Shown in pieces: positions 5,748 to 46,004 of a stretch of DNA of 64,000 nucleotides. A program made the position numbers and the translations under genes. The stretch is from Patescibacteria group bacterium (GTDB lineage: Bacteria; Patescibacteriota; Minisyncoccia; Phycocordibacterales; DATDWN01): contig JAZKJH010000003.1 in NCBI GenBank assembly GCA_040384485.1, forward strand, positions 7,556-71,555, written 5' to 3'. The notes below the pieces were generated by a model, which searched no databases, was not told where the DNA came from, and was given only the letters and a program-made list of their open reading frames with translations. Positions within the stretch are counted from its first letter, which is position 1. The number at the start of each line of letters is the position of its first letter.

Positions 5748-8222
5748 CTAGAATTCCAAATAATCAAACAATCTAGGAATAAAGTTTGGAATAATAGTTC
5801 CAGGTTGCTCTACTTCTAACACACACAAGTATGATGAGTCGGTACATAGACCACTCCAACCAGAGAACTTCCAGAAAGAAGATATCGGATATGCTCGAAG
5901 ATAGATGACTGTTCCTTCTTCATATATCACTGGACAGTCTGTCGTTCCTGGCTGACAAGTGATACCCCCTTCGATATCTACACTACCTTTTGGAGTGGCA
6001 TCGATAACAATGTTGTGTTGAGCTTGAGGGTTTGAAGCTGTACAAGTTCCACTAGGTGCTCCTCCGTTTAGACCGTTACATACCCATGTTGCACTCGCTC
6101 CCGGAGCTGGGAAGGCAGGACTGGCTGACTGAGACCCGGCAGAACAATATGTATCGCTTCCGTATGAACTAGATCCTACTGGATACGTTCTGTTTGCTGT
6201 TCCGCAGAATCCGTTTACAGGAGCAGCAGAAATAGTTACAGAGTAGTTTGTCCATGCTGAGTTAAGTCCTGGTGCATCTTGAGTTAGGGCTCTGAACGTT
6301 TTAGCTCCTGTTGTCGTCCAAGAATATGTAGTGTTTCTGCTTGTTCCTGAACTTACATATGATACTCCAGCCGGAAGCCACTCGTCTGCAGTTCCATCCA
6401 TGTTCCAGTCGACTCCGTATCGGATTTGGTCGCCTTGTGGATCAGTCGCAGTAAATGTGTATGTGTAACTTGTGCTTGGATATCCTGTCGTTGGACCAGA
6501 TATTGTTGGGGCGTTTGCTGATGTATTACATGATGCTAAAGGAGAAGTAGTTTGAGCTGGGCTAGTTGCTCTTGACCCCGACTGCCCACCAGCATTTGAT
6601 GCTCTAACAGTATATGTATATGCAGTTGAACCACTCAAGCCAGTGTCTGAATGAGACGTACCTGTACTGTTATAAATCACTGCTCCATTTCTGTAAACTT
6701 GATAACTTGTCGCTCCAGACACAGAAGACCATGACAAATTGATAGTGCCGGTACCGCAAGTACTCGGTGTTGCGGTAAGAGATGCTGGAATAGCTGGTGG
6801 ATTTGCAGTCCATGTAGCAGTTAGACTTTGACCACCAGATGGCATAGTTGAAGCTAATGCTGGAGACCATCCTGCAAAAATGAATCCGGCCCTAGTCGGG
6901 TTTGCTGGTGCTGAAACAGCAGTACCGTATTGTTGCGTAATAGTTGAAACGGCAGAACCACCTGCTGAGTTGAAGGTTATGTTGTACGAATTTACGGTAC
7001 ATCCAGTTGCTGAATACGTACCAGACAATGAACCGTTTGAACAAGTTCTTGTTTGCGATGAACATACATCAGCAGCTGATGCAGAGTAAGCTGTGTTTGA
7101 ATACCCGTGAGCTACTGTTCCCCATGGACTTGAACAGCTAGCTGGACCTTCTACAGAACAAGATGTTGCTGTGTAGCTTCCTGACATACTTCCATTTGAA
7201 CAAGTTCTAGTTTGAGGTGCACATGATGAGCCGTATGGTACTGATGAAGATTGGTAAGCTGTGTTTGAATACCCGTGAGCTACTGTTCCCCATGGACTTG
7301 AACAGCTAGCTGGACCTTCTACAGAACAAGATGTTGCTGTGTAGCTTCCGGTCAGTGTTCCGCTTGAACATGTTCGTGTTTGGGATGCACAAGAGGAACC
7401 GTATGGGACCGAAGATGTTTGGTATGCAGTGTTTGAGTATCCATGCGTTACTGCTCCCCAAGGGGTACTCGCACAACCTGGGGTACAAGATGTAACTGTG
7501 TAGCTTCCTGACATGCTTCCGTTTGAACAAGTTCTAGTTTGAGGAGAACATGCGCCTGCTGGAGACGACTCAGAGTATGCAGTGTTAGAGTACCCGTGAG
7601 CTACTGTTCCCCATGGACTAGAACAACCACAATAATTAGCGACAGCGGTTGGACCACTAGACGCAGATGGTGACGTGCCACCTGCATTTGAAGCAGTTAT
7701 TGTATATGAGTAGGATCCTCCTATTGTAAGTCCGGTGTCTGAAATAGCTAGAGACCCTCCGTTGTATATAAGTGTGCCGTTTCTATATACTTGGTAACTT
7801 GTTGCTCCTGCCACTGCATTCCATGAAAGATTTATCCAGTTATTACCACAAGAACTGGGTCCTGACCAAAAACCTGTTACCGTTTCCAGTATTGAACCGT
7901 AACAATAAGCCACATCTTGATTCCCTAGGTTTCTAGTATAACCTTCGTACACATATCCGCTTTGAAAATAACAAATGTTTGAAAAGGTATATGGATTTAC
8001 TGTTTGATATTCGGTTGTACCTCCCCCATTATTTGAACACGAAACTCTATACTCGTGGGCAGTTCCGTCCCAACTGCCAGATGTTGGGGTGGCTAAAATG
8101 GTTATGTCAGCATAACCACCGCTTTGACTAACTTGTACCGAACAAACTTCTTCAGCCAAAAGCGTACCTGCCGAAAAAACATATAAAAATGCGAGCGCAA
8201 AAACAAATATAAAATTTTTCAT
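5748..8222 (-). CDS. Giant secreted cysteine-rich surface protein paralog (824 aa) with FN3-like, InlB-B-repeat-like and four tandem ~56-aa Cys-repeats
   Basis: Signal peptide MKNFIFVFALAFLYVFSAGTLLA. FN3-like ...ATSYQVYRNG... modules. GFIFAGWSP InlB-B-like repeat. Four tandem SPWGTVAHGYSNTAY..C..QTRTCSNGS.SGSYTATSC repeats. C-terminus identical to gene 1091..5239. Confidence 0.8.
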   Translation of the reverse strand: MKNFIFVFALAFLYVFSAGTLLAEEVCSVQVSQSGGYADITILATPTSGSWDGTAHEYRVSCSNNGGGTTEYQTVNPYTFSNICYFQSGYVYEGYTRNLGNQDVAYCYGSILETVTGFWSGPSSCGNNWINLSWNAVAGATSYQVYRNGTLIYNGGSLAISDTGLTIGGSYSYTITASNAGGTSPSASSGPTAVANYCGCSSPWGTVAHGYSNTAYSESSPAGACSPQTRTCSNGSMSGSYTVTSCTPGCASTPWGAVTHGYSNTAYQTSSVPYGSSCASQTRTCSSGTLTGSYTATSCSVEGPASCSSPWGTVAHGYSNTAYQSSSVPYGSSCAPQTRTCSNGSMSGSYTATSCSVEGPASCSSPWGTVAHGYSNTAYSASAADVCSSQTRTCSNGSLSGTYSATGCTVNSYNITFNSAGGSAVSTITQQYGTAVSAPANPTRAGFIFAGWSPALASTMPSGGQSLTATWTANPPAIPASLTATPSTCGTGTINLSWSSVSGATSYQVYRNGAVIYNSTGTSHSDTGLSGSTAYTYTVRASNAGGQSGSRATSPAQTTSPLASCNTSANAPTISGPTTGYPSTSYTYTFTATDPQGDQIRYGVDWNMDGTADEWLPAGVSYVSSGTSRNTTYSWTTTGAKTFRALTQDAPGLNSAWTNYSVTISAAPVNGFCGTANRTYPVGSSSYGSDTYCSAGSQSASPAFPAPGASATWVCNGLNGGAPSGTCTASNPQAQHNIVIDATPKGSVDIEGGITCQPGTTDCPVIYEEGTVIYLRAYPISSFWKFSGWSGLCTDSSYLCVLEVEQPGTIIPNFIPRLFDYLEF
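5749..6421. repeat. Copy 2 of ~673-bp direct repeat
   Basis: Same sequence as 1092..1764. Encodes the shared C-terminal domain ...FWKFSGWSGLCTDSSYLCVLEVEQPGTIIPNFIPRLFDYLEF. Confidence 0.8.
7088..7700. repeat. Intragenic tandem repeat, period 168 bp, ~3.7 copies
   Basis: aagctgtgtttgaatacccgtgagctactgttccccatggacttgaacagctagctggaccttctacagaacaagatgttgctgtgtagcttcc recurs at 7088, 7256 and 7424 (diverged), with a fourth at 7577. Encodes the ~56-aa Cys-repeats. Confidence 0.75.
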
Positions 8223-8304
8223 GAGATTATGCGTAGATTTAAATTTAGATTAAACCAAGATGTAATATTCAAACAGCACTAACTATATATAGCTTACTAC
8301 ACAT

Positions 8305-8340
8305 GAAAATAGAATACATTTTTTCAGTTGTGGATAGTGC
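8305..8340 (-). promoter_or_regulatory. Conserved upstream motif (copy 2)
   Basis: gaaaatagaatacattttttcagttgtggatagtgc, ~85 bp upstream of the start of gene 5748..8222. Paralogous to 5648..5683. Confidence 0.45.
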
Positions 8341-8342
8341 GA

Positions 8343-9689
8343 CTATATCCCCTGTCTTGAAAGTAGAGATTTTATCGTTTTGAGGGCGATTTTTATATCA
8401 AGCCAAAACGAGCGGTTCTTTATATAGTATATGTCGTAAGTCAGTTTCTCTTTTGTCAGAGACACTTCAGCTCCGTGGTGTGGGTGAATTTCCTGGTGGA
8501 TCTGAGCCCAGCCAGAGAGTCCTGGTTTTATAAGGTGTCTAATATTGTAATATGGTATTTCTTTGTCGTAGATAGAAACTCCGGAAGGCAACTCTGGTCT
8601 CGGTCCAATAAGGGAGATATCCCCTTTTATTACATTCCATAATTGAGGAAACTCATCTATTCTAGTTTTTCGAAGTATGTTACCAACTCTTGTCACGCGG
8701 TTTTCACTTCCTGCGTTCAAATCAACAATGTTTTTACTCATTGAACGAAATTTATAAAGCTTGATAAGTTTGCCGTCCTTTCCAACCCTTTCTTGAGAAA
8801 TAAATATCGAACCCTTGTCATCTAGTTTTATTGCAATGTAAACAAAAGGATAAAACAAAAGTGATGCGATTCCTAGAATTGCTGACAAAGTTATGTCCAT
8901 AATTCTCTTAAGAAAATCATAAGTGAAGTTTGGTGAGATGGATATGTTTTCCAAAAACCAACTATAGGTAACTAGGGACAGAGGGATGCGGTCGAAAATG
9001 TCCTCGTATATTTTATGAGAATCAATGAATCTAACTTTTGAAAATACCAAGTTATACAAATGTGGGAGCAGAGTGCTTATTTTTTCGTTTGCGAAATCAA
9101 CCGCAATTATTTTTATATCATTTGAATACACTTGCCTTATAATATCCTCTTGAATGTCGATAGAATCAATATTGTTTACATCTACCGAAGAAACAAACTG
9201 CAAGTCATATCTGTTGTTGCCATTTACTTCTGACAATAACTCTTTCATTTCACCTCCAGCTCCTATTATTAACGCAGGCTGCTTTTCCTTTTTTGTTATA
9301 ACTGACAAACCATACAGTCTCCAAAAAAGTACACCGGCAAAAGAAATAAGTAGATACAAAAACAATATAGTTTTTGGCGTGATACCAAAAAAAGGAAAAG
9401 CATAGAAAAAAACTACCGCTACAATACTGTTAGCAACTTGAGCATTAAAAACTATTGAAGGTAGCTTACTTTTAAGTATAAGGGTATGCTTTTCATACAA
9501 TCCTGCAATAAAATAAACTATGAACCACAATATGAATAGTAGAGAAAAAGGTATAAGGTGATCTAAATAAAGCTCTTTTTCTGGAAATTCTGTAAAGCGG
9601 ATAGAGAGTGTCAGCCAAAGTGAAAACGCAAAGAAAAATACATCTCCCAAAAAGAGTAGGACGGGTTCTTTTCTAGTAAGAATATCCAT
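8343..9689 (-). CDS. Polyprenyl-phosphate sugar phosphotransferase (WbaP/CpsE-like bacterial sugar transferase)
   Basis: C-terminal ...KLYKFRSM...RIDEFPQLWNVIKGDISLIGPRPE... bacterial sugar transferase signature. Multiple N-terminal TM helices. Confidence 0.85.
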   Translation of the reverse strand: MDILTRKEPVLLFLGDVFFFAFSLWLTLSIRFTEFPEKELYLDHLIPFSLLFILWFIVYFIAGLYEKHTLILKSKLPSIVFNAQVANSIVAVVFFYAFPFFGITPKTILFLYLLISFAGVLFWRLYGLSVITKKEKQPALIIGAGGEMKELLSEVNGNNRYDLQFVSSVDVNNIDSIDIQEDIIRQVYSNDIKIIAVDFANEKISTLLPHLYNLVFSKVRFIDSHKIYEDIFDRIPLSLVTYSWFLENISISPNFTYDFLKRIMDITLSAILGIASLLFYPFVYIAIKLDDKGSIFISQERVGKDGKLIKLYKFRSMSKNIVDLNAGSENRVTRVGNILRKTRIDEFPQLWNVIKGDISLIGPRPELPSGVSIYDKEIPYYNIRHLIKPGLSGWAQIHQEIHPHHGAEVSLTKEKLTYDIYYIKNRSFWLDIKIALKTIKSLLSRQGI

Positions 9690-32133: not shown

Positions 32134-33573
32134 TTAGTCTTTTCTTACAAACAGTGGGCTACTCGGAGTTTTGTTTGCTTTTATTAACTCTTTTATTTTT
32201 GTAGATGTTTCAGGCATTATTGGGTTTAATATTCTTGCCACTGAATACAAACCGACTGCTAGTTCGGTTACCATTTTCTCCCCTGCCTCCTTGTCAGTTT
32301 TTATAACCTTGAAAGGTTGGTTGTTTTGTATGTATGAGTCTAGCTCACTTATTTTCTCCCAAATGAAACCCACCGCCTTGCTTATCTCAAAATTATTTAG
32401 GTGAACGAAATACTCTTCCATGTTCTCGGACTCAGCGATACTAACCGGTGATGACAGGTTATCACTAGCCATTTTCATTATTCTAGAAACCAAGTTCCCA
32501 ACCCCGTTTGCGAACTTGGCATTATATATTTCCTTCAATCTGTCTTTTGAAACACTACTGTCCTCAAAATTAGATAACTCTCCGGCGACATAGTACCGCA
32601 AGAAATCCACACCGTATTCATCTATTATTTCTTTTGGACCAACAACATTACCCAAAGACTTACTCATTTTTCTGCCGTCTTCTGCATTAATGAAACCGTT
32701 GATAACAATGTTGTTACTTGGGTTAAGACCAGCTGACATAAGCATTGCCTGCCACATTGCCGACTGTTGTCTTAGATTGTCTTTACCACAATACTGCACC
32801 GGAGTTCCGTTTACCCAATATTTTTCGTAATTAGTTAAATCCTCAGGCCAACCCAGAGTAGAGATGTAGTTTACTAGTGCATCAAACCAAACGTACATAA
32901 CATGATCCAGGTCGTTTGGCACAGGCACACCCCAAGGCATTTTTGATTTAAGTCTGGAAATACTGAAATCCTCTAATCCCCTTTCAACAAAAGCTTTGAT
33001 CTCATTGAATCTAAAATCTGGTAGAACAAAATTTGGGTTTTTGGCATACAAATCCAAAAGTTTAGTTTGGTACTTACTAAACCTAAAAAAATAATTCTCT
33101 TCTTCTCTTATTTCCAACTCCTTATTTGGGTGCACGGGACACTTACCATCCTCCAAATCTGAATCCTGTTTTTCCAACTCACAACCGATACAATATTTAA
33201 CTTTGTAGTTCTTTTTGTATATATCATCATTATCCAGACACTTCTGCCAAAAAGCTTGAGCTGCTTTTATATGATGTTCGTCGGTTGTTCTGATAAAGTG
33301 CAAGTCATCACTTAGTCCCAGCAATCCTTTTAAGTCTTTGAAACTTTCAGCATATTTATCTACATAAGATTTCACATCGGTTCCTGCACTAACAGCGTTT
33401 TCGTATATTTTTTGCCCATGCTCGTCAGTTCCTGTGTTAAAAAACACATCAAAATCTTGAAGTTTTTTTGAGCGTGCGATTATGTCTGCACGAATAATCT
33501 CCATAGCGAAACCTAAGTGAGGCTCGGAGTTCACATACGGCAGAGTTGTTGTTATATAAAAGTTTTTACTCAT
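32134..33573 (-). CDS. metG: Methionyl-tRNA synthetase (short form)
   Basis: FYITT.LPY.N..PHLG, NTGTDEHGQKI, KMSKSLGN. The HIGH motif reads HLGF (second His replaced by Phe; checked codon by codon). Confidence 0.9.
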   Translation of the reverse strand: MSKNFYITTTLPYVNSEPHLGFAMEIIRADIIARSKKLQDFDVFFNTGTDEHGQKIYENAVSAGTDVKSYVDKYAESFKDLKGLLGLSDDLHFIRTTDEHHIKAAQAFWQKCLDNDDIYKKNYKVKYCIGCELEKQDSDLEDGKCPVHPNKELEIREEENYFFRFSKYQTKLLDLYAKNPNFVLPDFRFNEIKAFVERGLEDFSISRLKSKMPWGVPVPNDLDHVMYVWFDALVNYISTLGWPEDLTNYEKYWVNGTPVQYCGKDNLRQQSAMWQAMLMSAGLNPSNNIVINGFINAEDGRKMSKSLGNVVGPKEIIDEYGVDFLRYYVAGELSNFEDSSVSKDRLKEIYNAKFANGVGNLVSRIMKMASDNLSSPVSIAESENMEEYFVHLNNFEISKAVGFIWEKISELDSYIQNNQPFKVIKTDKEAGEKMVTELAVGLYSVARILNPIMPETSTKIKELIKANKTPSSPLFVRKD

Positions 33574-33575
33574 AG

Positions 33576-34649
33576 TTATGAATTTAACATTTTTTCCATT
33601 TTTTCTATTTTATCTTTCTCGAAGTCATTGAAGAACTCTAGTATTACAGCTGAGATAGGCACGGCCAATATAAGACCGATAAAACCGACTAGTTCCCATC
33701 CTGCGGCCAGTGCCACAATAGAAACCACTGGAGACACTCCGACCACTTTTTTCACCACCAAAGGATAGATGAGTTGGTTTTCAAATTGATGAACAATAAG
33801 ATATAGCCCCATTACTATAACCGCCATCGGCAACCCTCCACTAACAAAAGCAATTAGTATGGCAGGTATAGATGCAAGAATCGGACCGAACAGAGGTATT
33901 ATTTCAAATATCGCTGCAAGAACAGCAAGAAGCAGCGCGTTTGGAACACTCAAAAGGGTTAGTCCTAGATACACCAACATTCCTATGATAACTGCCAGCA
34001 CGAGTTGTCCTTGCATCCAAAGCCCGATTTTTTTCTGAGAGCGTTTCCACAACGAGACGATGTAGTTCTCATGTTTGATGGTGGTGATAGCCTTCAAAAA
34101 CTTAGCCACACCGTCCTCTTCTACTGCCAAATAGAAAGATAAAATAATAGTTAGAATAAAACTAAGTACCCCTCCAAAGAAAGTGGCCAGACTTCCGAAA
34201 GTGTTTGAATATATCCCGGCCATAACGGTGTTGATTCCATGAATAACGTCGTCAAAATTAAACGTATTGGCTATACCGGTGATTGATTCTCCAACAAGAC
34301 CAGTAGTACTCACAGTTTCTACACCTTCCTTGGCACTCATATATGCTGGAAAGTTACGGAGAAAGTCGCTAGATTCAGAAAGCAATGGGATAAGTAGGAA
34401 AAATACTGCACCAACTAGGAACATGGCTATGAGTAAATAGATGAGAATGACTGCAAACAATCTTGGGATTTTTCTTTTTACAAACCATTGAGTTCCGGGT
34501 TCAATAGCAGAAGCTATAACTATCGACATTAGGAGTACTAGCACTAGATCCTTAAGTAAATACAAAGTAAGAAACAAAAGAATAACAACTATCGCTTTTG
34601 TGATTGTTCCTAGACTTATTGCTATTACGTTGTCTTTTATCTCTGGCAT
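33576..34649 (-). CDS. AI-2E family transporter (UPF0118/PerM-like)
   Basis: 8 TM helices with the characteristic central hydrophilic loop. 357 aa. Confidence 0.75.
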   Translation of the reverse strand: MPEIKDNVIAISLGTITKAIVVILLFLTLYLLKDLVLVLLMSIVIASAIEPGTQWFVKRKIPRLFAVILIYLLIAMFLVGAVFFLLIPLLSESSDFLRNFPAYMSAKEGVETVSTTGLVGESITGIANTFNFDDVIHGINTVMAGIYSNTFGSLATFFGGVLSFILTIILSFYLAVEEDGVAKFLKAITTIKHENYIVSLWKRSQKKIGLWMQGQLVLAVIIGMLVYLGLTLLSVPNALLLAVLAAIFEIIPLFGPILASIPAILIAFVSGGLPMAVIVMGLYLIVHQFENQLIYPLVVKKVVGVSPVVSIVALAAGWELVGFIGLILAVPISAVILEFFNDFEKDKIEKMEKMLNS

Positions 34650-39248: not shown

Positions 39249-39830
39249 CTACAACTGGCTTTCTTTTAATGCTTTGTTTATTACAAATACCAACTCTCTT
39301 TTACCTAAAATAGTTTCTGAAATGACATCTTTGCTAAATTCGCTGTCTTGCAAAAAACGGTCCAGATTGACTCCACCTTCAACATACCCGAGCAGGTTGA
39401 GTACACGGAGGACTGTAAGTACCTCGAGCCCCGGTAAATCCTCTGGATCAGCACCTTTTAGAAAACCGAAGCTTTTGTGTACTAGCTCGTAGATGTCATG
39501 CTGAGGATACTCTCCCGCAATCATTTTTATCAACACTGCAGATATCTGAGCCAATAATTTTCTGGAGTAAACGGGTGTTGAAAAGAAAAAGTTTTCCTTT
39601 TCAACTACATTGGTTATCTTCCACCCATTTTTTGACTTTATAAGTGAAAATGTTCCGGAAGTATATTCTTCTAGTCCTGATCTAAGTTTTGAAGCAGAAA
39701 GCCTGGCCGACTTTGCTTTTGCCATAACTAGTCCCAAATCTTGGGTCAACAAGTACACTGACACATCAGCTTCCCCGCTTCCCATACGTTTTAGAACAAT
39801 ACCCTCTGTAGTGTATATATGGTAAGACAT
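39249..39830 (-). CDS. recO: DNA repair protein RecO (short form)
   Basis: N-terminal OB-fold pattern ...TEGIVLKRMGSGEADVSVYLLTQDLGLV.AKAKSARLSASKL... Confidence 0.6.
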   Translation of the reverse strand: MSYHIYTTEGIVLKRMGSGEADVSVYLLTQDLGLVMAKAKSARLSASKLRSGLEEYTSGTFSLIKSKNGWKITNVVEKENFFFSTPVYSRKLLAQISAVLIKMIAGEYPQHDIYELVHKSFGFLKGADPEDLPGLEVLTVLRVLNLLGYVEGGVNLDRFLQDSEFSKDVISETILGKRELVFVINKALKESQL

Positions 39831-39846
39831 AATGACTGTGTGATAT

Positions 39847-42800
39847 TTAGAACTTAATCATTAGTGACAAACTCCCGTTTTCCAAAGAAACTTCATTTAC
39901 TTGTTTGTCGTTTGAATATTCTATTGCACCAACTCCTGTTGGAGTCGTGATCATATTTTTATATTCTTCTATAACAGCTTTTGTATTTTCGTCGACACAC
40001 AAAACTAAAGTTACAGAATCACTAGGACTTAGATTTTCTTTTTTCCTCAAATCCTGTATTCCTCGAACAATGTCCCTTGCCACTCCTTCCTTTCTCAAAT
40101 CATCTGTCAGGTCTGTGTCCAACTGAAGAGATTCTCCAACAGACACAGTTTTTACATTAACCTCATCAGCTATTATATCCAACAATTCTTGATTGAAGTT
40201 TTTATTTACAACCAAGCTTTGTAAAGGTTGTCGTACTTTGTGTCCGCTTTTCTGTCTTAGTTCCAATGCTGCAGTGACCACCCCACGTACTGATTCCATT
40301 TCTTCTACTAGTGCAGAGTCGATAGCACCAGCTTTTGGCCAACTACATAAATGCACACTTTCGTCGTCACCATCTTTTCTTACTTTCAGATATATTTCTT
40401 CAGCAAAAAACGGAGTAAATGGTGCCATATACTTCATAAGCTCTTGCAAAACAAACCCGGTTGTAGAAAGCGCATCGGTCTTTTCTTGTAGGTTATCTGA
40501 TTTAAACCTGTCTCTGGATCTTCTTACATACCAAGTAGAAAAATCGTTTACAAAATCTCTAACAGATCTAGCAGAATCAAAGACCTTAAATGCATCTAGA
40601 TTTTTTGTCCCCCCTTCTACCAGCTCGTTCAGTCTAGAAATAATCCATCTGTCCAAAACATCAGAACTTTCGTTGTTTGGTTTTATTGATCCGTCGTTGT
40701 ACATATTGTAGAACGCAAGAATATTTACTATTGGATTGAAAACTTTTTTAGTTATTTCATCCACAGTTTTCTCATCAAAGTTCTTCGAATCGCCTGGATT
40801 GTTTACTGAATACATCCAGAAGCGAAGTGCGTCAACTCCGTACTTGTTCATCAAATCCCAAGGGTCTAGAATATTTCCAACAGACTTACTCATCTTCTTA
40901 CCTTCTTTGTCCAATATATGACCCAAACAAATTACATTTTTATATGCTTTTCCTTTGCCCAAAAGAACCCCTATAGCATGCAAGGTATAGAACCACCCGC
41001 GAGTTTGATCTATCGCTTCTGAAATAAAGTCTGCTGGATAATTCACGTCTCCTTGGAAAGGATAATGATCCTGAGCAAAAGGCATAGCACCTGAGTCAAA
41101 CCAAACATCCATAACTTCTTTTACTCTCTTCATTGGAGTACCATCTTCGTCCACCAACTGCACTTCGTCTATATATGGTTTATGCAAATCTAGCTCAAAA
41201 TCAGAGTTGTATGGAAGCGGAACAAAATCCACTTTTCTTATTTCTGCGTTTTCGTAGTTTCTAAAACTTCTAGTAGATGTAAATAGTTTGGCTCTGGTGT
41301 AACCGTCTGCAACCAGACTCATGGCACGAGTAAGCCCACCATGAGAAACGATGAGAATATTTTTACCAGAGTATTGTTTCTCTAGTTTATACAAAAACTC
41401 TCCTACTCTTTTCAAAACATCATCGTATGACTCCCCACCTTCCGCTCTCCAAGCGTAACGGTCCGGACTTGAGTTTCTAGCAACAAAATAATCTTCTATT
41501 GGTTTTCCGTTCCATTCTTTTCCAGCATTCCATTCAACTATTGAGTCGTCCACGATAACCGACTCTGGAGAAATCCCTATAACCCCCGCAACTGTTTTTG
41601 CTGTTTGCATTGTCCTCTCAAAAGGAGAAGCTATTATCAAATCTATATTCTTATCTTTTAGGTATTCTGCATTCGCTTTTGCCAAAGCAACTCCTTTGTC
41701 AGTTAGAGGATCGTGATTTTCCACATTACAACTCCAAACTCCGTTTATGTTGCCCACCGACTCCCCGTGTCGCATAACAAAATAATTATTACCAGACTTC
41801 TTAACATATTTTTTCAAGTCAGCTATTGAACTGACAACTAGTTTGTCTCCGTTTTGTTTTTCCCAAATTGGCATAGGTGTTCCCCAGTATCTCTCTCGAC
41901 TTATTGCCCAGTCTTTTATTTCCCTTAGCCACTCACCAAACCTCCCCTCCTTTATGTGTTCCGGTTCCCAGTTCACCGCCTCGTTCTCTTTTACCAACTC
42001 ATCACGCAGGCTCGACATTTTTATATACCAAGAATCTCTTGCGTAGTAGATAAGTGCAGTTTTACATCTCCAGCAGTGAGGATAAGAGTGTTCATACTTT
42101 TCTTTTTTGAATAACTGCCCTCTTCCAGCCAGGTCTTTTATTATATCTATCGCCACCTCTTCATCTTTTACAAAACGGTTAGACAAAAACCCCATCTCAT
42201 CTAGGAAATGTCCGTCCTCCTTCACTAAGTGAAATTTTGGTAAACCTATTTGTGTTCCCAGAACAAAGTCTTCTTGCCCGTACATAACCGCAGTGTGCAC
42301 AATACCCGTTCCGTCGGTAGTAGTAACAAAGTCAGCAGAATAAACTTTGTATGATTTCGCGAATGCTTCGGGATTCTTTTCGGTAAATTTTTCGGCAAAG
42401 TACGGGTAGAGTGGTTCATATTCCATTCCAACACACTCGCTTCCTTTGTGTTCTGCAACTATTTCATATGGTTCTGTAATAACTGACAAACGTTCTTTTG
42501 CAAGAACAAGTATTTCATTTCCAACCTTTGCTTCGACATAAACAATATCCGGACCAACAGCTAGTGCTACGTTTCCAGGCAGAGTCCATGGGGTTGTAGT
42601 CCAGGCAAGGAAATAGGCGTTTTCAAAACCTTTTATTTTAAACTTTGCAGTAACAGATAAATCTTTGTCGTCTTGATAACCCTGAGCCAGTTCATGTGAG
42701 GACAGTGCTGTTCCACAACGTGGGCACCATGGTAGAACTTTGTAGTCTTTGTATAGCAAGCCTTTGTCGTCTACGGTTTTGAGAATATTCCAAACAGATT

Positions 42801-43269
42801 CTATGTAGTTGTTTTCGAAAGTGTAGTAAGCCTCTTCTTTGTTTACCCAGTAACCTATTCTGTCTGTAAACTTTTCCCAATCAGAAATATACTGAAATAC
42901 ACTTTCTTTACATTCGCGGTTAAACTTCTCTACTCCATACTGTTCTATGTCCTTTTTTGAAGTCAGTCCTAGTTTTTTCTCTATTTGAAGTTCTACCGGA
43001 AGTCCGTGTGTATCCCAACCAGCTTTTCGGCGCACGGAAAAACCTTGCATAGTTTTGTAGCGAGGGATTATGTCTTTGAATGCTCTAGCTTCTAGGTGAT
43101 GAAGTGCTGGCTTCGCGTTAGCTGTAGGAGGTCCTTCAAAAAATACAAACTCCCCTTTCGGTGATTCTTTTTGTAGAGTTTTATCAAAGATTTTGTTTTC
43201 ACTCCAAAAATTCAGAATGGATTCTTCTTTCTGGGCTACTTCTGATTTATTTTTTTCTTCTTCTTTCAT
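39847..43269 (-). CDS. ileS: Isoleucyl-tRNA synthetase (type 2-like) carrying an inserted histidine-phosphatase (PGM-family) domain
   Basis: PPTANAKPALHH (variant HIGH), WCPRCGTALSSHE, DWAISRERYWGTPMPIW ... DVWFDSG, KMSKSVGN. Residues ~493-657 (nt 41299..41793) form an RHGE...SHGG histidine-phosphatase module. Confidence 0.9.
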   Translation of the reverse strand: MKEEEKNKSEVAQKEESILNFWSENKIFDKTLQKESPKGEFVFFEGPPTANAKPALHHLEARAFKDIIPRYKTMQGFSVRRKAGWDTHGLPVELQIEKKLGLTSKKDIEQYGVEKFNRECKESVFQYISDWEKFTDRIGYWVNKEEAYYTFENNYIESVWNILKTVDDKGLLYKDYKVLPWCPRCGTALSSHELAQGYQDDKDLSVTAKFKIKGFENAYFLAWTTTPWTLPGNVALAVGPDIVYVEAKVGNEILVLAKERLSVITEPYEIVAEHKGSECVGMEYEPLYPYFAEKFTEKNPEAFAKSYKVYSADFVTTTDGTGIVHTAVMYGQEDFVLGTQIGLPKFHLVKEDGHFLDEMGFLSNRFVKDEEVAIDIIKDLAGRGQLFKKEKYEHSYPHCWRCKTALIYYARDSWYIKMSSLRDELVKENEAVNWEPEHIKEGRFGEWLREIKDWAISRERYWGTPMPIWEKQNGDKLVVSSIADLKKYVKKSGNNYFVMRHGESVGNINGVWSCNVENHDPLTDKGVALAKANAEYLKDKNIDLIIASPFERTMQTAKTVAGVIGISPESVIVDDSIVEWNAGKEWNGKPIEDYFVARNSSPDRYAWRAEGGESYDDVLKRVGEFLYKLEKQYSGKNILIVSHGGLTRAMSLVADGYTRAKLFTSTRSFRNYENAEIRKVDFVPLPYNSDFELDLHKPYIDEVQLVDEDGTPMKRVKEVMDVWFDSGAMPFAQDHYPFQGDVNYPADFISEAIDQTRGWFYTLHAIGVLLGKGKAYKNVICLGHILDKEGKKMSKSVGNILDPWDLMNKYGVDALRFWMYSVNNPGDSKNFDEKTVDEITKKVFNPIVNILAFYNMYNDGSIKPNNESSDVLDRWIISRLNELVEGGTKNLDAFKVFDSARSVRDFVNDFSTWYVRRSRDRFKSDNLQEKTDALSTTGFVLQELMKYMAPFTPFFAEEIYLKVRKDGDDESVHLCSWPKAGAIDSALVEEMESVRGVVTAALELRQKSGHKVRQPLQSLVVNKNFNQELLDIIADEVNVKTVSVGESLQLDTDLTDDLRKEGVARDIVRGIQDLRKKENLSPSDSVTLVLCVDENTKAVIEEYKNMITTPTGVGAIEYSNDKQVNEVSLENGSLSLMIKF

Positions 43270-43469
43270 TTTTTTAGTAATCTTAAAATTTTATTAATAG
43301 CAACTGACGCAGCCAAAATGATTATGATTATCGCTAAAACCTTAGCATCATTATTTCTTTCTAGCCCTGGAACTGTTGGCAAAGTGGCTGAAACTTTTTC
43401 AGTTATAAAGAAATAACCAGTAGTTATATATGCCAGATGTTTAAATTTCATTTTTATTGGTTTTAATAA

Positions 43470-43705
43470 ACAAAAACCCGTCCGCGTATAACAAATAATT
43501 GCTATACAAGGACGAGCTTCTCGTGGTACCACCTTGTTTTTTACCCCGCCCAGTTGCGGGGACTCTCTTTACTGCTATAACGGGCTTACCCGTTGGGTTC
43601 TACATCTGCCTCTGCAGATTCTTCCCAAAACTCGGGGGTGATTAGTCCCCCTCAGCGTCTATATCAAAATATTACCAAACAAAACCTTTTATGTCCAAAC
43701 GAATA
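43470..43705 (-). promoter_or_regulatory. Candidate T-box riboswitch leader for ileS
   Basis: Minus strand contains AAGGUGGUACCACGA at 43523-43531 (T-box consensus AGGGUGGNACCGCG), an AGAGA GA-motif, and a downstream CGUCC...GGACGGGUUUUUGUUU terminator (43472-43500). Confidence 0.4.
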
Positions 43706-43750: not shown

Positions 43751-43771
43751 CTCGACAAGTGACCCATTGGT

Positions 43772-44140
43772 CTACTTACAACCACCTCCGATGAGGCCAC
43801 CCAAGAAGTGGATTTTCTGCCCGTCGGCGAGCGTCATCCACCCTGTTCCATTGCGGATCCAAACCCGCAAGGGACGGAACTCCTGCCCCTCAACTTTCAC
43901 AACGCAGTTGGCGGCGTTGTGGGCTTCGAGCTTCGCAATCAATGCCTGGGATTGCGCTGCCCCGATTCTGGCCTCTTCCTTACCAAGCCAAACTGTGGCG
44001 ATTGCGAGAACAATGATAATGCTCGCGACGCCAACTTTGTGACGAACTTCGAACATCGACCACAGGCTTGGGAGGAAAACCATCCCTCCAATAAAAGCGA
44101 CGAAATCCAGACAGAACACAACAAGGAACAGAGTTTCCAT
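43772..44140 (-). CDS. Hypothetical protein (122 aa): two N-terminal TM helices plus C-terminal soluble domain ending ...GGLIGGGCK. Lies in a 58%-GC island
   Basis: ATG at 44140 with GGAGAA RBS, perfect promoter upstream, terminator downstream. The ORF-track N-terminal extension (to 44206) is 5' UTR. Confidence 0.55.
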   Translation of the reverse strand: METLFLVVFCLDFVAFIGGMVFLPSLWSMFEVRHKVGVASIIIVLAIATVWLGKEEARIGAAQSQALIAKLEAHNAANCVVKVEGQEFRPLRVWIRNGTGWMTLADGQKIHFLGGLIGGGCK

Positions 44141-44238
44141 GATTTTCTCCTTCTGAGAAACTAACTGGAGGCAAAGGCCGTTTTCTTCAGTCGTGTATAC
44201 GACCAAAACCAGTTAATAAACTTGGTCTTACTTATTAT

Positions 44239-44357: not shown

Positions 44358-46004
44358 CTACATTCTCTCTGGAACTTTTACCCCCAGTAATTCTAAACCT
44401 TTTGCCATTGTCTGTGCGAACACTTGAGTCAGGGCTATTTTGTATTTTGAATCCGAATCTTCACCTATTATTTTTCCGTTAGCATAAAACGAGTTAAACT
44501 CCCCGGCCAGCTCAGTTAGGTAGGTTACTAGATAATGCGGAGCATATTCCCTACCCGCTTTTTCTACGACACCAGAAAACCTTTCAAGTAATCTCTCTAG
44601 GTTTGTCGTCTGCCAGTCTTCTGGAATATCCGACAAACTAGCTTCACTGTCAGTTACTTTTGATAAAATAGATTTTGCTCTGACAACTGAGTATTGTAGG
44701 TACGGGCCAGAGTCTCCTTCAAAAGAAAGGGACTTTTCAAAGTCAAAAATAATATCCCCTCCTATCGCTTGGCGAAGGATAGAGTATTTGATGGCACCTA
44801 TTGCAACTATTTCTGCAACCTCGCCTTTTTCTGATTCTGAAAACTCTCGGTCAGATATTTTTTCCAAAACCTTTTCTCTGACCTGTTCGATTAAAGATTC
44901 TGCAGAAATAATGTTTCCTGTTCTAGAAGACATTTTCCCTGATGGAAGTTTTAACATTCCGTGTGACAGATGATGTAGTTTTCCATTAAGTTCGGGAAAA
45001 ACTTGCCTTATGGCACACTCTACAACTTTGAAAACGGCGTCCTGTTCGTTTGCGGTTATTGTTACCGAAGTATCGTAGTTGTATATCTCTTTCTTAATCT
45101 CGGCTAGTCCAACTTCTTTGGCTTCGTATGTAGGAAGACCTTCTGAGTTCAGAAAAACCCTTGTGTGAAGTCCGAAGTTCTCGCCTTGAAATATTATAGC
45201 TCCGTTCTCACCCTGCTCGAAAACCTTCCCGATGTTTTCCTGCACTATTTTTCTTCCTATTTCTCCTGATTCGCTCTCATAAAAATGGTAGTCGAATTTA
45301 CTATTGAGTCTCTCGTATATTGATTCAAATTTTTCAAAAGACCTAGTTCGACCGTTAATATATATATTGTTTATCTCTTCATCAGAACTATCGTAAATTT
45401 TTTTATTTATTTCTATTATTTCTTTTTTTGACTCTTCGTTATCTTCATATGCATTGTGACCTTCAGCATAAGCGTTTTGAAAATCAATACTGTTTTTAAT
45501 ACCCCATACTGCTTTCGCGACATGAAGGCCTTTGTCACCGTGATATGTTGCGGTTTTCACCTCACCTTCGTTTGCAACCACAATTCTTTTTATTGACTCC
45601 CCAATAGTGTTATTCATTAAGTGGCCAATATGAAATTCCTTAAACGGGTTTGGTTGTGTGTGCTCAATAAAAAACTTTTTGCCTTTATAAACCTCAGAAA
45701 CCAAAGGTTTGCTTATCTCTGAATTAAAATACTTCTCATCAAAGAAAAAGTTTATAAATCCTGGTTTTATAACATCAATTCGTTTTATATGTCTTATATC
45801 TTGGGCCACAACAAACTCTTTTATTTCTAGAGCTAGTTCTAGTGGGTTTCTGCCAAACTCCTTTGCGTACACCATCGCTGTATTACTGGTATAGTCCCCC
45901 ATTTCAATATGTGTTGGGTAAGTCAAAAAAGTCGTTGGATTTTCTACCCCAAGATTTTTCAAACCCTTTTCTATCGCAACAATAAGTTCTTGTTTTGTAT
46001 TCAT
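44358..46004 (-). CDS. argS: Arginyl-tRNA synthetase
   Basis: HIGH motif FHIGHLMN. C-terminus ...LELLGVKVPERM typical of ArgRS. Confidence 0.9.
   Translation of the reverse strand: MNTKQELIVAIEKGLKNLGVENPTTFLTYPTHIEMGDYTSNTAMVYAKEFGRNPLELALEIKEFVVAQDIRHIKRIDVIKPGFINFFFDEKYFNSEISKPLVSEVYKGKKFFIEHTQPNPFKEFHIGHLMNNTIGESIKRIVVANEGEVKTATYHGDKGLHVAKAVWGIKNSIDFQNAYAEGHNAYEDNEESKKEIIEINKKIYDSSDEEINNIYINGRTRSFEKFESIYERLNSKFDYHFYESESGEIGRKIVQENIGKVFEQGENGAIIFQGENFGLHTRVFLNSEGLPTYEAKEVGLAEIKKEIYNYDTSVTITANEQDAVFKVVECAIRQVFPELNGKLHHLSHGMLKLPSGKMSSRTGNIISAESLIEQVREKVLEKISDREFSESEKGEVAEIVAIGAIKYSILRQAIGGDIIFDFEKSLSFEGDSGPYLQYSVVRAKSILSKVTDSEASLSDIPEDWQTTNLERLLERFSGVVEKAGREYAPHYLVTYLTELAGEFNSFYANGKIIGEDSDSKYKIALTQVFAQTMAKGLELLGVKVPERM

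Follow-up and report, generated by a model that had tools for sequence, protein, structure and literature searches.

Does a phosphatase lodged inside an aminoacyl-tRNA synthetase take part in tRNA charging, or did it come to rest there by chance? This question is raised by the ileS gene (39847..43269, minus strand; 1140 aa plus stop) of the window, by which we mean the whole 64,000-nucleotide stretch of DNA analysed here, which comes from a Patescibacteria bacterium of the Paceibacteria/Parcubacteria type. The preliminary description of this DNA had claimed a complete, in-frame histidine phosphatase within an intact isoleucyl-tRNA synthetase (IleRS), and the claim holds: the insert matches PF00300, it has all five catalytic residues and the reading frame is open. 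The window protein would thus be a two-enzyme protein, a type-2 synthetase (IleRS2) whose CP3 subdomain bears a phosphatase on its tip.

The host enzyme and the site of insertion

The ileS reading frame runs from an ATG start to a TAA stop with zero internal stops or frameshifts over its 1140 codons, and its product is identical to NCBI MES3004944.1. It scores 870.9 bits against the TIGR00392 ileS model (cutoff 621.4), in two stretches with the insert between them. The best PDB match is the IleRS2 structure 8c8w; IleRS2 structures reach E=1e-248 versus 1e-101 for IleRS1, Foldseek matches the protein to 8c8v (E=4e-78), and MupA/MupB-like models score about 790 bits. In the C-terminal part, Pfam places Anticodon_1 at residues 873-1017 and DUF5915 at 1049-1138. 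By its DUF5915 domain, its higher scores against IleRS2 than IleRS1 structures and its MupA/MupB-like model scores, the window protein is assigned to IleRS2.

Residues 1-489 (41803..43269, minus strand) comprise the first Rossmann (HUP) half, the CP core, the editing domain, CP2 and the first half of CP3, which ends at the helix SIADLKKYV. Residues 690-1140 (39847..41202, minus strand) comprise the second CP3 half, the second Rossmann half, the anticodon-binding domain and the type-2 C-terminal domain (DUF5915), and include ELDLHKPYID (CP3), DVWFDSG and KMSKS. The KMSKS signature (residues 792-796; 40882..40896, minus strand) is invariant in 53 homologs, as are the editing motifs W223-L230 (WTTTPWTL) and G320, G322, V324, H325 and D334 (GTGxVH...D334); the CP1 editing domain is present and matches the isolated editing-domain structures 1wk8 and 1ue0. 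The class I HIGH signature takes the non-canonical G/AXHH form, ALHH (residues 55-58; 43096..43107, minus strand), which aligns to GVHH/HVGH of P. megaterium IleRS2 (PmIleRS2). The motif had been flagged as atypical (PALHH); it is real, but it is a published natural variant of IleRS2 (PMC10485003), and D. radiodurans IleRS2, which has a natural ALHH, is active and mupirocin hyper-resistant with a Ki of 6.6 mM (PMC10485003). The HLGF of the neighbouring MetRS, flagged with it, is likewise real but is the majority form, HxGF occurring in 96/112 of the closest relatives. Judged by these motifs, the host is an intact, apparently working IleRS with predicted charging activity.

Upstream of ileS lies a T-box leader-like RNA (RF00230; 43505..43664, minus strand) in which Stem I is almost entirely missing. 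The match spans the full model at E=8e-15, with a score of 69.9 bits that falls below the gathering threshold of 93. Since 4 nt stand in place of seventy-two Stem I model positions, the specifier is not visible. The T-box core and the E-value argue that the leader is homologous to the T-box, and equivalent matches lie upstream of fused ileS in loci L003 and L004; the leader is probably a cis-regulator of the fused ileS. PADLOC gave no defence-system matches for the insert or for the two ORFs in the argS-ileS spacer.

The preliminary description had placed the phosphatase at 41299-41793, residues 493-657 (GNNYFVMRHGES...ILIVSHGGLTRAMSLVADGY), and had proposed an alignment with other IleRS sequences to fix the point of insertion. 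When the window protein was aligned to the PmIleRS2 structure 8c8w, residues 7-489 corresponded to chain residues 5-478 and residues 690-1046 to chain residues 483-851. As the alignment covers only both flanks, residues 490-689 (41203..41802, minus strand) are extra. An insertion is therefore real, but its length is about 200 aa and not about 165. It consists of an N-terminal linker, KKSGN, a histidine-phosphatase fold and a C-terminal linker, FVPLPYNS. Where the window protein has 200 aa, PmIleRS2 has a 4-residue turn. Ordinary enzymes with a segment of equivalent length would have spoken against an insertion; in unfused Patescibacteria IleRS, the alignment columns of the insert hold only 3-7 residues.

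Two details of the original account of the site have to be corrected. In orthologs, more than a short connector separates DWAISRERYWG from DVWFDSG; this interval holds the CP3 subdomain of roughly 50-60 aa, often with a CxxC...CxC zinc knuckle. The insertion also does not lie in the catalytic core: it is in CP3, a connective-peptide subdomain that is itself inserted in the Rossmann fold, and the phosphatase sits in a surface loop at the CP3 tip. The zinc-knuckle cysteines are gone from the window protein and kept in many relatives. According to IleRS structure papers, CP3 is a peripheral subdomain whose topology varies among IleRSs, and these papers assign no contact between CP3 and tRNA. The GC content of the insert (0.39-0.42) is like that of the rest of ileS. 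As both junctions were modelled at pLDDT 93-95, and an F..LPHN linker motif is conserved and specific to fused proteins, the attachment of the phosphatase is suggested to be fixed and not floppy.

Family and catalytic residues of the inserted domain

A search with histidine-phosphatase models, which the preliminary description had recommended, matched Pfam His_Phos_1 (PF00300) to residues 497-662 (41284..41781, minus strand) at E=9.8e-30 and 104.1 bits (cutoff 21.7), and the excised segment gave E=7e-31 and 107.8 bits. The catalytic positions, all on the minus strand, are R500-H501 of the RHG motif (41767..41772), in which the histidine is the predicted phospho-acceptor; R552 (41614..41616), the second phosphate-binding arginine; E579 (41533..41535), the predicted proton donor; and H643 of the SHG motif (41341..41343). 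Both catalytic histidines are thus present, as originally reported, and both are invariant in relatives. All five residues are retained in 53/53 full-length homologs, and again in 23/23 fused and 79/79 free-standing relatives, with N507 and R621 also invariant across fused and free forms. Some homologs have 2-4 tandem phosphatase copies in IleRS; all 10 complete copies of these variants keep the five residues, with single substitutions only at G502, N507 or R621. Mean pairwise identity is 40% for the insert and 51% for the host IleRS.

The insert has the alpha/beta fold of branch 1 of the histidine phosphatase superfamily, and its closest folds are of the phosphatase type (iPSP1, GpgP, PhoE and CobC), ranking above mutases. 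These structural neighbours are capped enzymes that act on small molecules, so that a metabolite is no worse a fit for the substrate than an RNA end. After the catalytic glutamate the sequence reads E-W-N-A-G-K-E-W-N-G, the E..G...G pattern of PhoE/CobC-type phosphatases. The PGM-family label might suggest a cofactor-dependent phosphoglycerate mutase (dPGM), but the domain resembles the phosphatase-type members instead, and no dPGM equivalog cutoff was reached (dPGM_arch, 67 vs 225; pgm_1, 24.8 vs 81.7; PRK14115, 19.7 vs 305; PRK01112, 31 vs 320). Scores also fell below the equivalog cutoffs for CobC (TIGR03162, 66.4 vs 162.9), PspA (NF045917, 64.1 vs 350) and the phosphohistidine phosphatase SixA (TIGR00249, 31.8 vs 74.5), so that by model score the insert resembles these families and is a member of none. 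Taken together, its sequence and predicted fold identify it as a complete histidine phosphatase of branch 1, similar in kind to PhoE, phosphoserine phosphatase and CobC, and we infer from its residues that it is catalytically active.

Distribution of the fused and free-standing phosphatase

The architecture recurs far beyond the window. PF00300 is carried by all of the best 120 full-length homologs, and fusions are numerous among the representatives of 50%-identity clusters. In GTDB species genomes, 24/30 loci have the insert within the IleRS reading frame, and the 21 loci that were aligned all have it at one shared column. The fusion is widespread and old. Fused IleRS occur in two deeply separated IleRS2 clades with the same insertion column, and they are not monophyletic on a bootstrapped host tree (0/100 bootstraps). 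Distances between inserts show only a weak correlation with those between hosts (Spearman 0.20), and the neighbour-joining tree of the inserts is poorly resolved and incongruent with that of the hosts. Repeated insertion or recombination of the phosphatase as a cassette may explain this non-monophyly.

Candidate phosphatase fusions to other synthetases were rejected, as P0319, P0269, P0263, P0241, P0242, P0292, P0284 and P0364 are all fragments of IleRS fusions. A lone in-frame read-through between ArgRS and the phosphatase, in locus L093, may be a sequencing error.

In unfused sister lineages the same phosphatase subfamily is encoded by a separate gene, hp, in the order argS-hp-ileS-recO, and in fused genomes the order is argS-ileS::hp-recO without a second phosphatase copy in the locus. 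In the window, the two conserved neighbours are argS upstream (44358..46004, minus strand; arginyl-tRNA synthetase, with Arg_tRNA_synt_N, tRNA-synt_1d and DALR_1) and recO downstream (39249..39830, minus strand; RecO_N). In one sister-lineage locus, L031, hp and ileS overlap by 4 nt, and L032 has the same argS-hp-ileS-recO neighbourhood. Across 79 free-standing metagenomic loci, ileS follows on the same strand in 65, within 100 nt of the phosphatase stop in 54, and argS precedes the phosphatase in 64; where at least 2.5 kb of downstream sequence was available, ileS followed in every case (43/43). Packing between hp and argS is roughly as tight as between hp and ileS. The 25 fused loci and the window have one phosphatase match each, inside ileS, and the fused and separate forms never occurred together in the loci examined. 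No remnant of a free-standing phosphatase was found in the argS-ileS spacer of the window (best E=0.012, 102 queries). None of ileS, argS and recO was found within 6 kb of the distant homologs from Clostridia and a Tenericutes-labelled MAG, and the ileS linkage is specific to this phosphatase subfamily. We infer that the insert originated from the operon neighbour hp.

The two forms also differ in charge. Measured against the background of their loci, free-standing phosphatases stand at +5.3 charges per 100 aa and fused inserts -1.3 (Mann-Whitney p=1.6e-6, a test that ignores kinship). Proteome charge differs lineage-wide between the fused and free-standing groups, and part of the raw difference is this proteome-wide shift; the contrast persists after normalisation to the locus background. 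It is suggestive of RNA binding by the free-standing form.

Possible roles of the phosphatase and comparison with known systems

The explanation that we favour, with somewhat better than even confidence, is that the insert is an active phosphatase working together with the synthetase. A phosphatase that is either fused to IleRS or encoded in its operon points, by the gene-fusion ("Rosetta-stone") argument, to a putative functional partnership between the two that has gone unrecognised. In the proposed mechanism, His501 would accept the phosphate, Arg500, Arg552 and His643 would hold it, and Glu579 would donate the proton. The phosphatase would act with the synthetase, not independently, on a phosphomonoester connected with aminoacylation, the preferred candidates being a tRNA whose 3' end is phosphorylated or some other substrate of the nucleotide type, for instance 2'/3'-phosphonucleotides, a nucleoside diphosphate or pyrophosphate. 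Fusion would tether it to the enzyme-tRNA complex, and the fused form would therefore need no strongly basic surface. A bolder version, which we think unlikely, makes the phosphatase a third catalytic pocket open to the acceptor end of tRNA or, in broader terms, an enzyme linked to aminoacylation on which many Patescibacteria depend. Prior to charging, it would clear A76 of tRNA of a 2'/3'-phosphate or pyrophosphate left there by damage or by toxins such as CCA-pyrophosphorylating enzymes, and would be supplied in trans by the argS-hp-ileS operon or in cis by the IleRS insert.

The main rival to partnership is neutral capture, a serious possibility that we nonetheless rate as less than probable. 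Here, a housekeeping small-molecule phosphatase (for phosphoserine, a sugar phosphate or a nucleotide) with no mechanistic tie to aminoacylation happened to lie beside ileS, was rearranged into the permissive CP3 loop and lost its separate copy, the fusion being kept only because the phosphatase is needed. This would suit the closest folds, which belong to the metabolite phosphatases iPSP1, GpgP, PhoE and CobC, as well as the peripheral position of CP3 and its variable topology between IleRSs. Since recO is unrelated to aminoacylation and hp is packed equally tightly against argS, the conserved synteny could reflect inheritance in compact genomes. IleRS also tolerate insertions, since GNAT and IS200-like transposase domains are found inside Patescibacteria IleRS as well, the former with its own NCBIfam model, ileS_w_GNAT. 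However, recurrence at one column in two deep IleRS2 clades, without monophyly, goes beyond the persistence that a single accident calls for, and the either/or distribution of fused and free forms holds throughout. The junctions are conserved and confidently modelled, and distant homologs outside Patescibacteria lack the ileS linkage. A purely metabolic enzyme would also leave unexplained why the free forms are unusually basic for their genomes and the fused forms are not.

The remaining alternatives bear on the nature of the insert itself. That it descends from a phosphatase but has lost catalysis, and now serves as a structural, tRNA-binding or ligand-sensing module, is improbable, since the invariance of the five catalytic residues, N507 and R621 across forms otherwise about 40% identical would be unexpected without selection for catalysis; the ten complete tandem copies likewise keep R500, H501, R552, E579 and H643. 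A glycolytic dPGM fused for co-expression is less probable still: every dPGM model is far below cutoff, phosphatase-type structures outrank mutases, and the insert has the E..G...G pattern after its catalytic glutamate. At that position dPGMs have an ERHYG-type block, and they have a longer C-terminal tail than the insert domain (about 170-200 aa). The preliminary description had itself worried about an assembly chimera, and a wrongly joined segment or a broken gene might be suspected in a metagenome-assembled genome, all the more as some homologs are short ORFs on long contigs. The chance of this is negligible. The fusion is not an assembly chimera, because it recurs in well over 100 independent assemblies, and the architecture is common to more than 120 independent clusters. 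All 1140 codons are open, both junctions are in frame, composition is uniform, and the identical protein is found on a 225-kb contig from two sources. The short ORFs, which had been candidates for split ileS genes, are explained by frameshift-ridden assemblies (L117 and L118, in which EF-Tu is also fragmented) or by a recoded organism (L036; UGA=Trp, with 19 in-frame TGA at conserved Trp positions).

Few enzymes have been studied as closely as the aminoacyl-tRNA synthetases, in which nested catalytic domains are, to our knowledge, known only for editing. A literature search found no description of an IleRS-phosphatase fusion, in keeping with the suspicion that the architecture was undescribed, nor is a phosphatase mentioned in a 2026 preprint that surveys 96,219 IleRS sequences. 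NCBI names many fusion proteins, the window's included, only 'class I tRNA ligase family protein'; as this label hides the fusion, annotations call for caution. In the loci examined, a large uncultivated bacterial radiation has retained a phosphatase that appears active, placed either within IleRS or within the operon of ileS. If the functional link is real, tRNA charging would have an overlooked phosphorylated intermediate, damage product or inhibitor, and the acceptor-end reading, if true, would add a previously unknown step of tRNA-end repair or quality control built into a synthetase. If the link is not real, the locus would still be a clean natural case of the capture of a neighbouring gene into the permissive loop of an essential enzyme.

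Among known systems, the host resembles the bacterial IleRS2 of D. radiodurans and P. megaterium (8c8u/8c8v/8c8w; Brkic et al. 2023, PMC10485003), with which it shares the fold, the DUF5915 C-terminal domain, KMSKS and the exact ALHH motif of DrIleRS2. A domain in CP3 sets the window protein apart from every solved or described IleRS2. The PhoE/iPSP1/GpgP/CobC-type phosphatases (PDB 1h2e, 4ij5, 6s2q, 6e4b and 9mmh) are 22-28% identical to the insert, whose subfamily differs from them in being embedded in a synthetase or linked to it in an operon, with strongly basic free-standing members. Other phosphatase fusions include mycobacterial Rv2228c/RnhC (NCBIfam NF005567), which joins RNase H to an acid phosphatase, and MutT1 (PDB 3fjy and 9cxx), which joins a Nudix domain to a histidine phosphatase. 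These are end-to-end fusions with other partners, whereas the window domain is nested inside a class I synthetase subdomain and scores far below the family cutoffs (77 vs 326). The CP1 editing domain of class Ia enzymes and the INS domain of ProRS, which are visited by the flexible tRNA 3' end, also place a second hydrolytic site in the Rossmann-fold domain of a synthetase; they are esterases of unrelated fold that act on aminoacyl-tRNA, and their likeness to the phosphatase insert is one of architecture only. Curators had already noticed an IleRS with an extra catalytic domain in NCBIfam NF040702 (ileS_w_GNAT), which has another domain and, by model coordinates, another insertion site, and against which the window protein scores 303 (cutoff 1999). 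One relative, P0355, has both His_Phos_1 and GNAT.

Insertion of a histidine phosphatase into a type-2 isoleucyl-tRNA synthetase

The ileS ORF of the window (39847..43269, (-) strand) runs for 1140 codons from an ATG start to a TAA stop without interruption. Its product scored 870.9 bits against the NCBIfam ileS equivalog model (cutoff 621.4) and carries the Pfam domains tRNA-synt_1, Anticodon_1 and DUF5915 together with His_Phos_1, in agreement with the preliminary description of an intact frame containing a phosphatase, with no stop or frameshift. The nearest solved structures were those of Priestia megaterium IleRS2 (8c8w/8c8v/8c8u, E ~1e-248), followed by T. thermophilus and yeast IleRS, with type-1 IleRS far more distant. 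The full-length protein was modelled with AlphaFold2 (mean pLDDT 83, pTM 0.72), and Foldseek matched this model to IleRS2 structures with E=4e-78.

The phosphatase had been described as a ~165-aa module in the catalytic core, at 41299-41793 (residues 493-657). Translation of this span recovered both reported motifs, with RHGE at its start (...YFVMRHGES) and the second histidine motif at its end (...ILIVSHGGLTRAM...). As the protein aligns cleanly to P. megaterium IleRS2 on either side of the module (query 7-489 to chain 5-478; query 690-1046 to chain 483-851), residues 490-689 (41203-41802, (-) strand) stand in place of a 4-residue turn, and the extra segment thus extends beyond the module first delimited. 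In Patescibacteria IleRS without the insert (unfused), these columns contain 3-7 residues. Residues 40-168 and 513-632 make up the catalytic (HUP) core as defined for PmIleRS2, and in yeast/Candida nomenclature the connective-peptide subdomain CP3 extends from the CP2-3 linker (ARDWNVSRNRYWG) to the DxWFxSG strand; the phosphatase is therefore located at the tip of CP3, which is nested within the Rossmann fold, but outside the core itself. CP3 of T. thermophilus IleRS binds zinc; the CxxC...CxC knuckle flanking the insert is retained in many orthologs, and its cysteines are lost in the window protein. In the IleRS literature examined, CP3 is assigned no tRNA contact, although both the tRNA CCA end and reveromycin A bind in a pocket lined by the adjoining CP2-3 linker. 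AlphaFold2 confidence across the insert and both junctions was high (pLDDT 88-96), and the GC content of the insert equals that of the remaining ileS gene.

His_Phos_1 matched residues 497-662 of the window protein (E=9.8e-30, 104 bits, cutoff 21.7) and the excised segment (E=7e-31), which bears out the proposed family. With the insert domain as query, fold comparison gave the highest values for the phosphoserine phosphatase iPSP1 (4ij5, 20.7), glucosyl-3-phosphoglycerate phosphatase (6s2q, 20.2), PhoE (1h2e, 19.9), a riboflavin-pathway phosphatase (9mmh, 19.6) and CobC (6e4b, 19.0), followed by human phosphoglycerate mutase PGAM1 (1yfk, 17.8), SixA (1ujc, 15.2), and Sts-2 and PGAM5 (3d4i and 5muf, 13.9). 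The insert scored below the NCBIfam equivalog cutoffs for CobC, PspA, SixA, GpmB and all dPGM models. It belongs to the superfamily but to none of its characterised families. Its predicted catalytic set (R500-H501-G502, N507, R552, E579, R621 and H643) is shared without change by 53/53 full-length homologs, as well as by 23/23 fused and 79/79 free-standing relatives. Since these residues are invariant while between-species identity of the domain is ~40%, versus 51% for the host IleRS, the pattern indicates selection on catalysis.

Distribution and origin of the fusion

The NCBI entry MES3004944.1, encoded on a 225-kb contig and titled 'MAG: class I tRNA ligase family protein [Patescibacteria group bacterium]', is identical to the window protein. 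PF00300 and IleRS domains occurred together in all 120 best full-length matches (58-100% identity, 1107-1184 aa), whose named taxa include Minisyncoccia, Paceibacterota, Zambryskibacteria, Nomurabacteria and Parcubacteria. Among 30 loci returned from GTDB species-representative genomes, 24 carry the insert within an open frame with IleRS motifs (~1100-1230 aa, shorter at contig ends), and its position falls in the same alignment column in 21/21 aligned loci. An exhaustive search without a profile, using the insert as sole query, likewise returned many 50%-identity cluster representatives that are IleRS fusions. The concern that the window gene is an assembly chimera was not borne out by this recurrence, which excludes it for practical purposes and leaves an artefact unlikely.

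The fused hosts form two IleRS2 groups, with A/GxHH or HYGH-type signatures. Tandem phosphatase domains occupy the same site in four relatives, with two copies in P0274, P0281 and P0301 and four in P0243; all ten complete copies retain R500, H501, R552, E579 and H643. In another relative, P0355, an IS200-like Y1 transposase domain, His_Phos_1 and a GNAT acetyltransferase domain all lie within tRNA-synt_1. A metagenomic fusion, L036 4495-8130 (JGI 3300040675, GC 26%), contains 19 in-frame TGA and zero TAA/TAG codons. As these TGA codons occupy sites of conserved tryptophan (WDTHGLP, RYWG, TRGWF), this organism reads UGA as Trp (code 4-like), unlike Gracilibacteria/Absconditabacteria, where UGA is Gly, and the architecture is thus also present in a UGA=Trp organism.

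Gene callers split the L036 fusion into many small ORFs. On the long contigs of P0016 and P0024 (L117 and L118), both ileS and EF-Tu are split into several short ORFs, which points to indel-rich assemblies; such records inflate database counts of 'partial' fusion proteins. At one further locus (L093 5381-7567), ArgRS and the downstream phosphatase share a 729-codon frame (...VMGISSPQQM|KRIELNNKYYIMRHGQ...), an apparent read-through fusion seen in this single case, for which sequencing error is possible.

Among free-standing phosphatases, those most similar to the insert (36-38% identical) have genes adjoining ileS. In a Staskawiczbacteria locus (L031), the gene for a 197-aa phosphatase shares 4 nt with the start of an insert-less, 933-aa ileS, with recO further downstream; a second locus (L032) has the order argS, phosphatase, one ORF plus a retroelement, ileS, recO. 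The retroelement region (7618-9055) holds a bAvd-like gene and a reverse-transcriptase gene, a pair resembling a diversity-generating retroelement. A profile built from the free-standing family, scanned against metagenomes, yielded 80 loci, 79 free-standing and one fused. Of the 79, 65 have a downstream ileS on the same strand (43/43 where at least 2.5 kb of sequence follows), the phosphatase stop is within 100 nt of the ileS start in 54 and within 25 nt in 47, and argS lies upstream in 64, with a junction as tight as that to ileS. Distant homologs (Clostridia and a Tenericutes-labelled MAG) had no ileS, argS or recO within 6 kb.

The window has the same order and strand, with argS at 44358-46004, ileS with its insert, and recO at 39249-39830 (all (-)). 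This arrangement is common to 25 further fused loci, and each of these, like the window, has exactly one phosphatase match, inside ileS. No phosphatase remnant was found in the 1.09-kb argS-ileS spacer of the window. In the loci examined, the fused and operon-adjacent forms are thus shown to stand in an either/or relationship. The spacer contains a GC-rich patch (43770-44070; 0.51-0.59 versus 0.40 window-wide) at the position held by the phosphatase gene in unfused relatives. The patch, with a 144-aa ORF (43772-44206, (-) strand) that is hydrophobic in its N-terminal half, gave no Pfam or PADLOC match and nothing above chance in Rfam.

The simplest reading of these gene orders is that the phosphatase was an operon neighbour that moved into CP3 of the adjacent gene. 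When 87 host IleRS were placed in an NJ tree (812 columns) and bootstrapped, the fused state was monophyletic in 0/100 replicates, an unfused trio clustered with a fused protein in 100/100, and the main fused A/GxHH clade, including the window, had 98/100 support. Insert and host distances were weakly correlated (Spearman 0.20). Either repeated insertion or recombinational swapping of a phosphatase-ileS cassette could produce this non-monophyly and weak correlation.

Proposed function of the phosphatase

By homology with PhoE-type enzymes, the domain would be an active phosphomonoesterase with His501 as phospho-acceptor and Glu579 as proton donor. We infer that it is coupled to IleRS and acts jointly with the synthetase, as suggested by gene-fusion logic (fused or operon-adjacent forms), by conserved, confidently modelled junctions that include a fused-specific F..LPHN motif, and by a charge contrast. 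Net charge per 100 aa is +6.7 in free-standing phosphatases versus a locus background of +1.4, and -2.6 in fused inserts versus -1.35; the background-corrected difference gave p=1.6e-6 (Mann-Whitney, a statistic that ignores phylogeny). A basic surface may be required where the free form must itself find a polyanion (tRNA) or the acidic synthetase, and may become dispensable once the domain is tethered to IleRS. Our preferred candidate substrate is a phosphorylated or pyrophosphorylated tRNA 3' end, followed by nucleotide-type products or by-products (2'/3'-phosphonucleotides, nucleoside diphosphates, PPi) and, third, a phospho-residue on the synthetase.

Neutral capture, in which a housekeeping phosphatase entered a permissive loop and became fixed there once the free copy was lost, is a serious alternative that we regard as a real possibility though not the probable one. 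It draws its weight from the presence of recO in the cluster, the equally tight packing against argS, the metabolite phosphatases that are its nearest folds, and the other inserted domains that Patescibacteria IleRS tolerate. That the insert is a dPGM is unlikely given its scores against the dPGM models, and a dead structural domain is likewise unlikely beside the invariant catalytic set.

We found no description of a histidine phosphatase in or beside IleRS in the literature searched, and a 2026 preprint annotating the domain architecture of 96,219 IleRS sequences mentions no phosphatase, consistent with the initial impression of an unrecognised architecture. The sequences are public, with the window protein and many relatives labelled just 'class I tRNA ligase family protein'. 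The fusion, an IleRS2 with a nested second enzyme, is real and widespread, and apparently undescribed. Because operon and fusion forms are complementary, it is more than a curiosity and offers a testable hypothesis on aminoacylation in Patescibacteria.

Leader RNAs and synthetase signature motifs

A T-box leader-like RNA (43505-43664, (-) strand; RF00230, 69.9 bits, below the gathering threshold of 93, E=8e-15) lies in the argS-ileS spacer, with ~235 nt between it and the ileS ATG. It retains an intact T-box core (AAGGUGGUACCACG), and 4 nt stand in place of 72 Stem I model positions, so no specifier loop is visible. Similar matches lie ahead of fused ileS in the two nearest relatives tested from GTDB (L003 3303-3454 and L004 4133-4272), and none was found in L001, L002, L009 or five unfused loci. 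In this AT-rich region an 88-aa ORF (43266-43532, (-) strand) with a GTG start and a hydrophobic C-terminus overlaps the 3' end of the element and, through ATGA, the ileS start codon. It had no family match, and could represent either a spurious call or a small coupled ORF.

The HLGF motif noted in the neighbouring MetRS (32137-33609, (-) strand; KMSKS intact) was found as described, with Phe at the fourth HIGH position versus HLGH in A. aeolicus MetRS (2csx). HxGF is the majority form, in 96 of 112 scored sequences among the 120 closest relatives (Patescibacteria MetRS fragments), with HxGH in 16. It is a lineage-wide variant and no error, and to our knowledge has not been described.

A clade of 22 unfused Patescibacteria IleRS (100/100 support) combines a GVHH/GIHH (once GAHH) HIGH motif with EMHKS/GMHKS instead of KMSKS (for example ...DEKGEEMHKSKGNAIWFDE), so that both class I signature motifs are non-canonical. 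In its member loci (L040, L047, L048, L054, L055, L057, L058, L066, L073, L078, L079, L084-L086, L089, L095, L098, L102, L106, L107, L111 and L114), ileS lies downstream of the free-standing phosphatase, and two members tested scored 704 and 791 bits, above the TIGR00392 ileS cutoff.

The HIGH motif of the window IleRS, earlier called atypical, is indeed non-canonical but not unexplained, as natural IleRS2 forms include G/AXHH, which is HXGH with its first and third positions exchanged (PMC10485003). IleRS2 of D. radiodurans has ALHH, catalyses with normal efficiency and is inhibited by mupirocin with a Ki of 6.6 mM (PMC10485003). The host, which shares ALHH with D. radiodurans IleRS2, is thus a known kind of enzyme.
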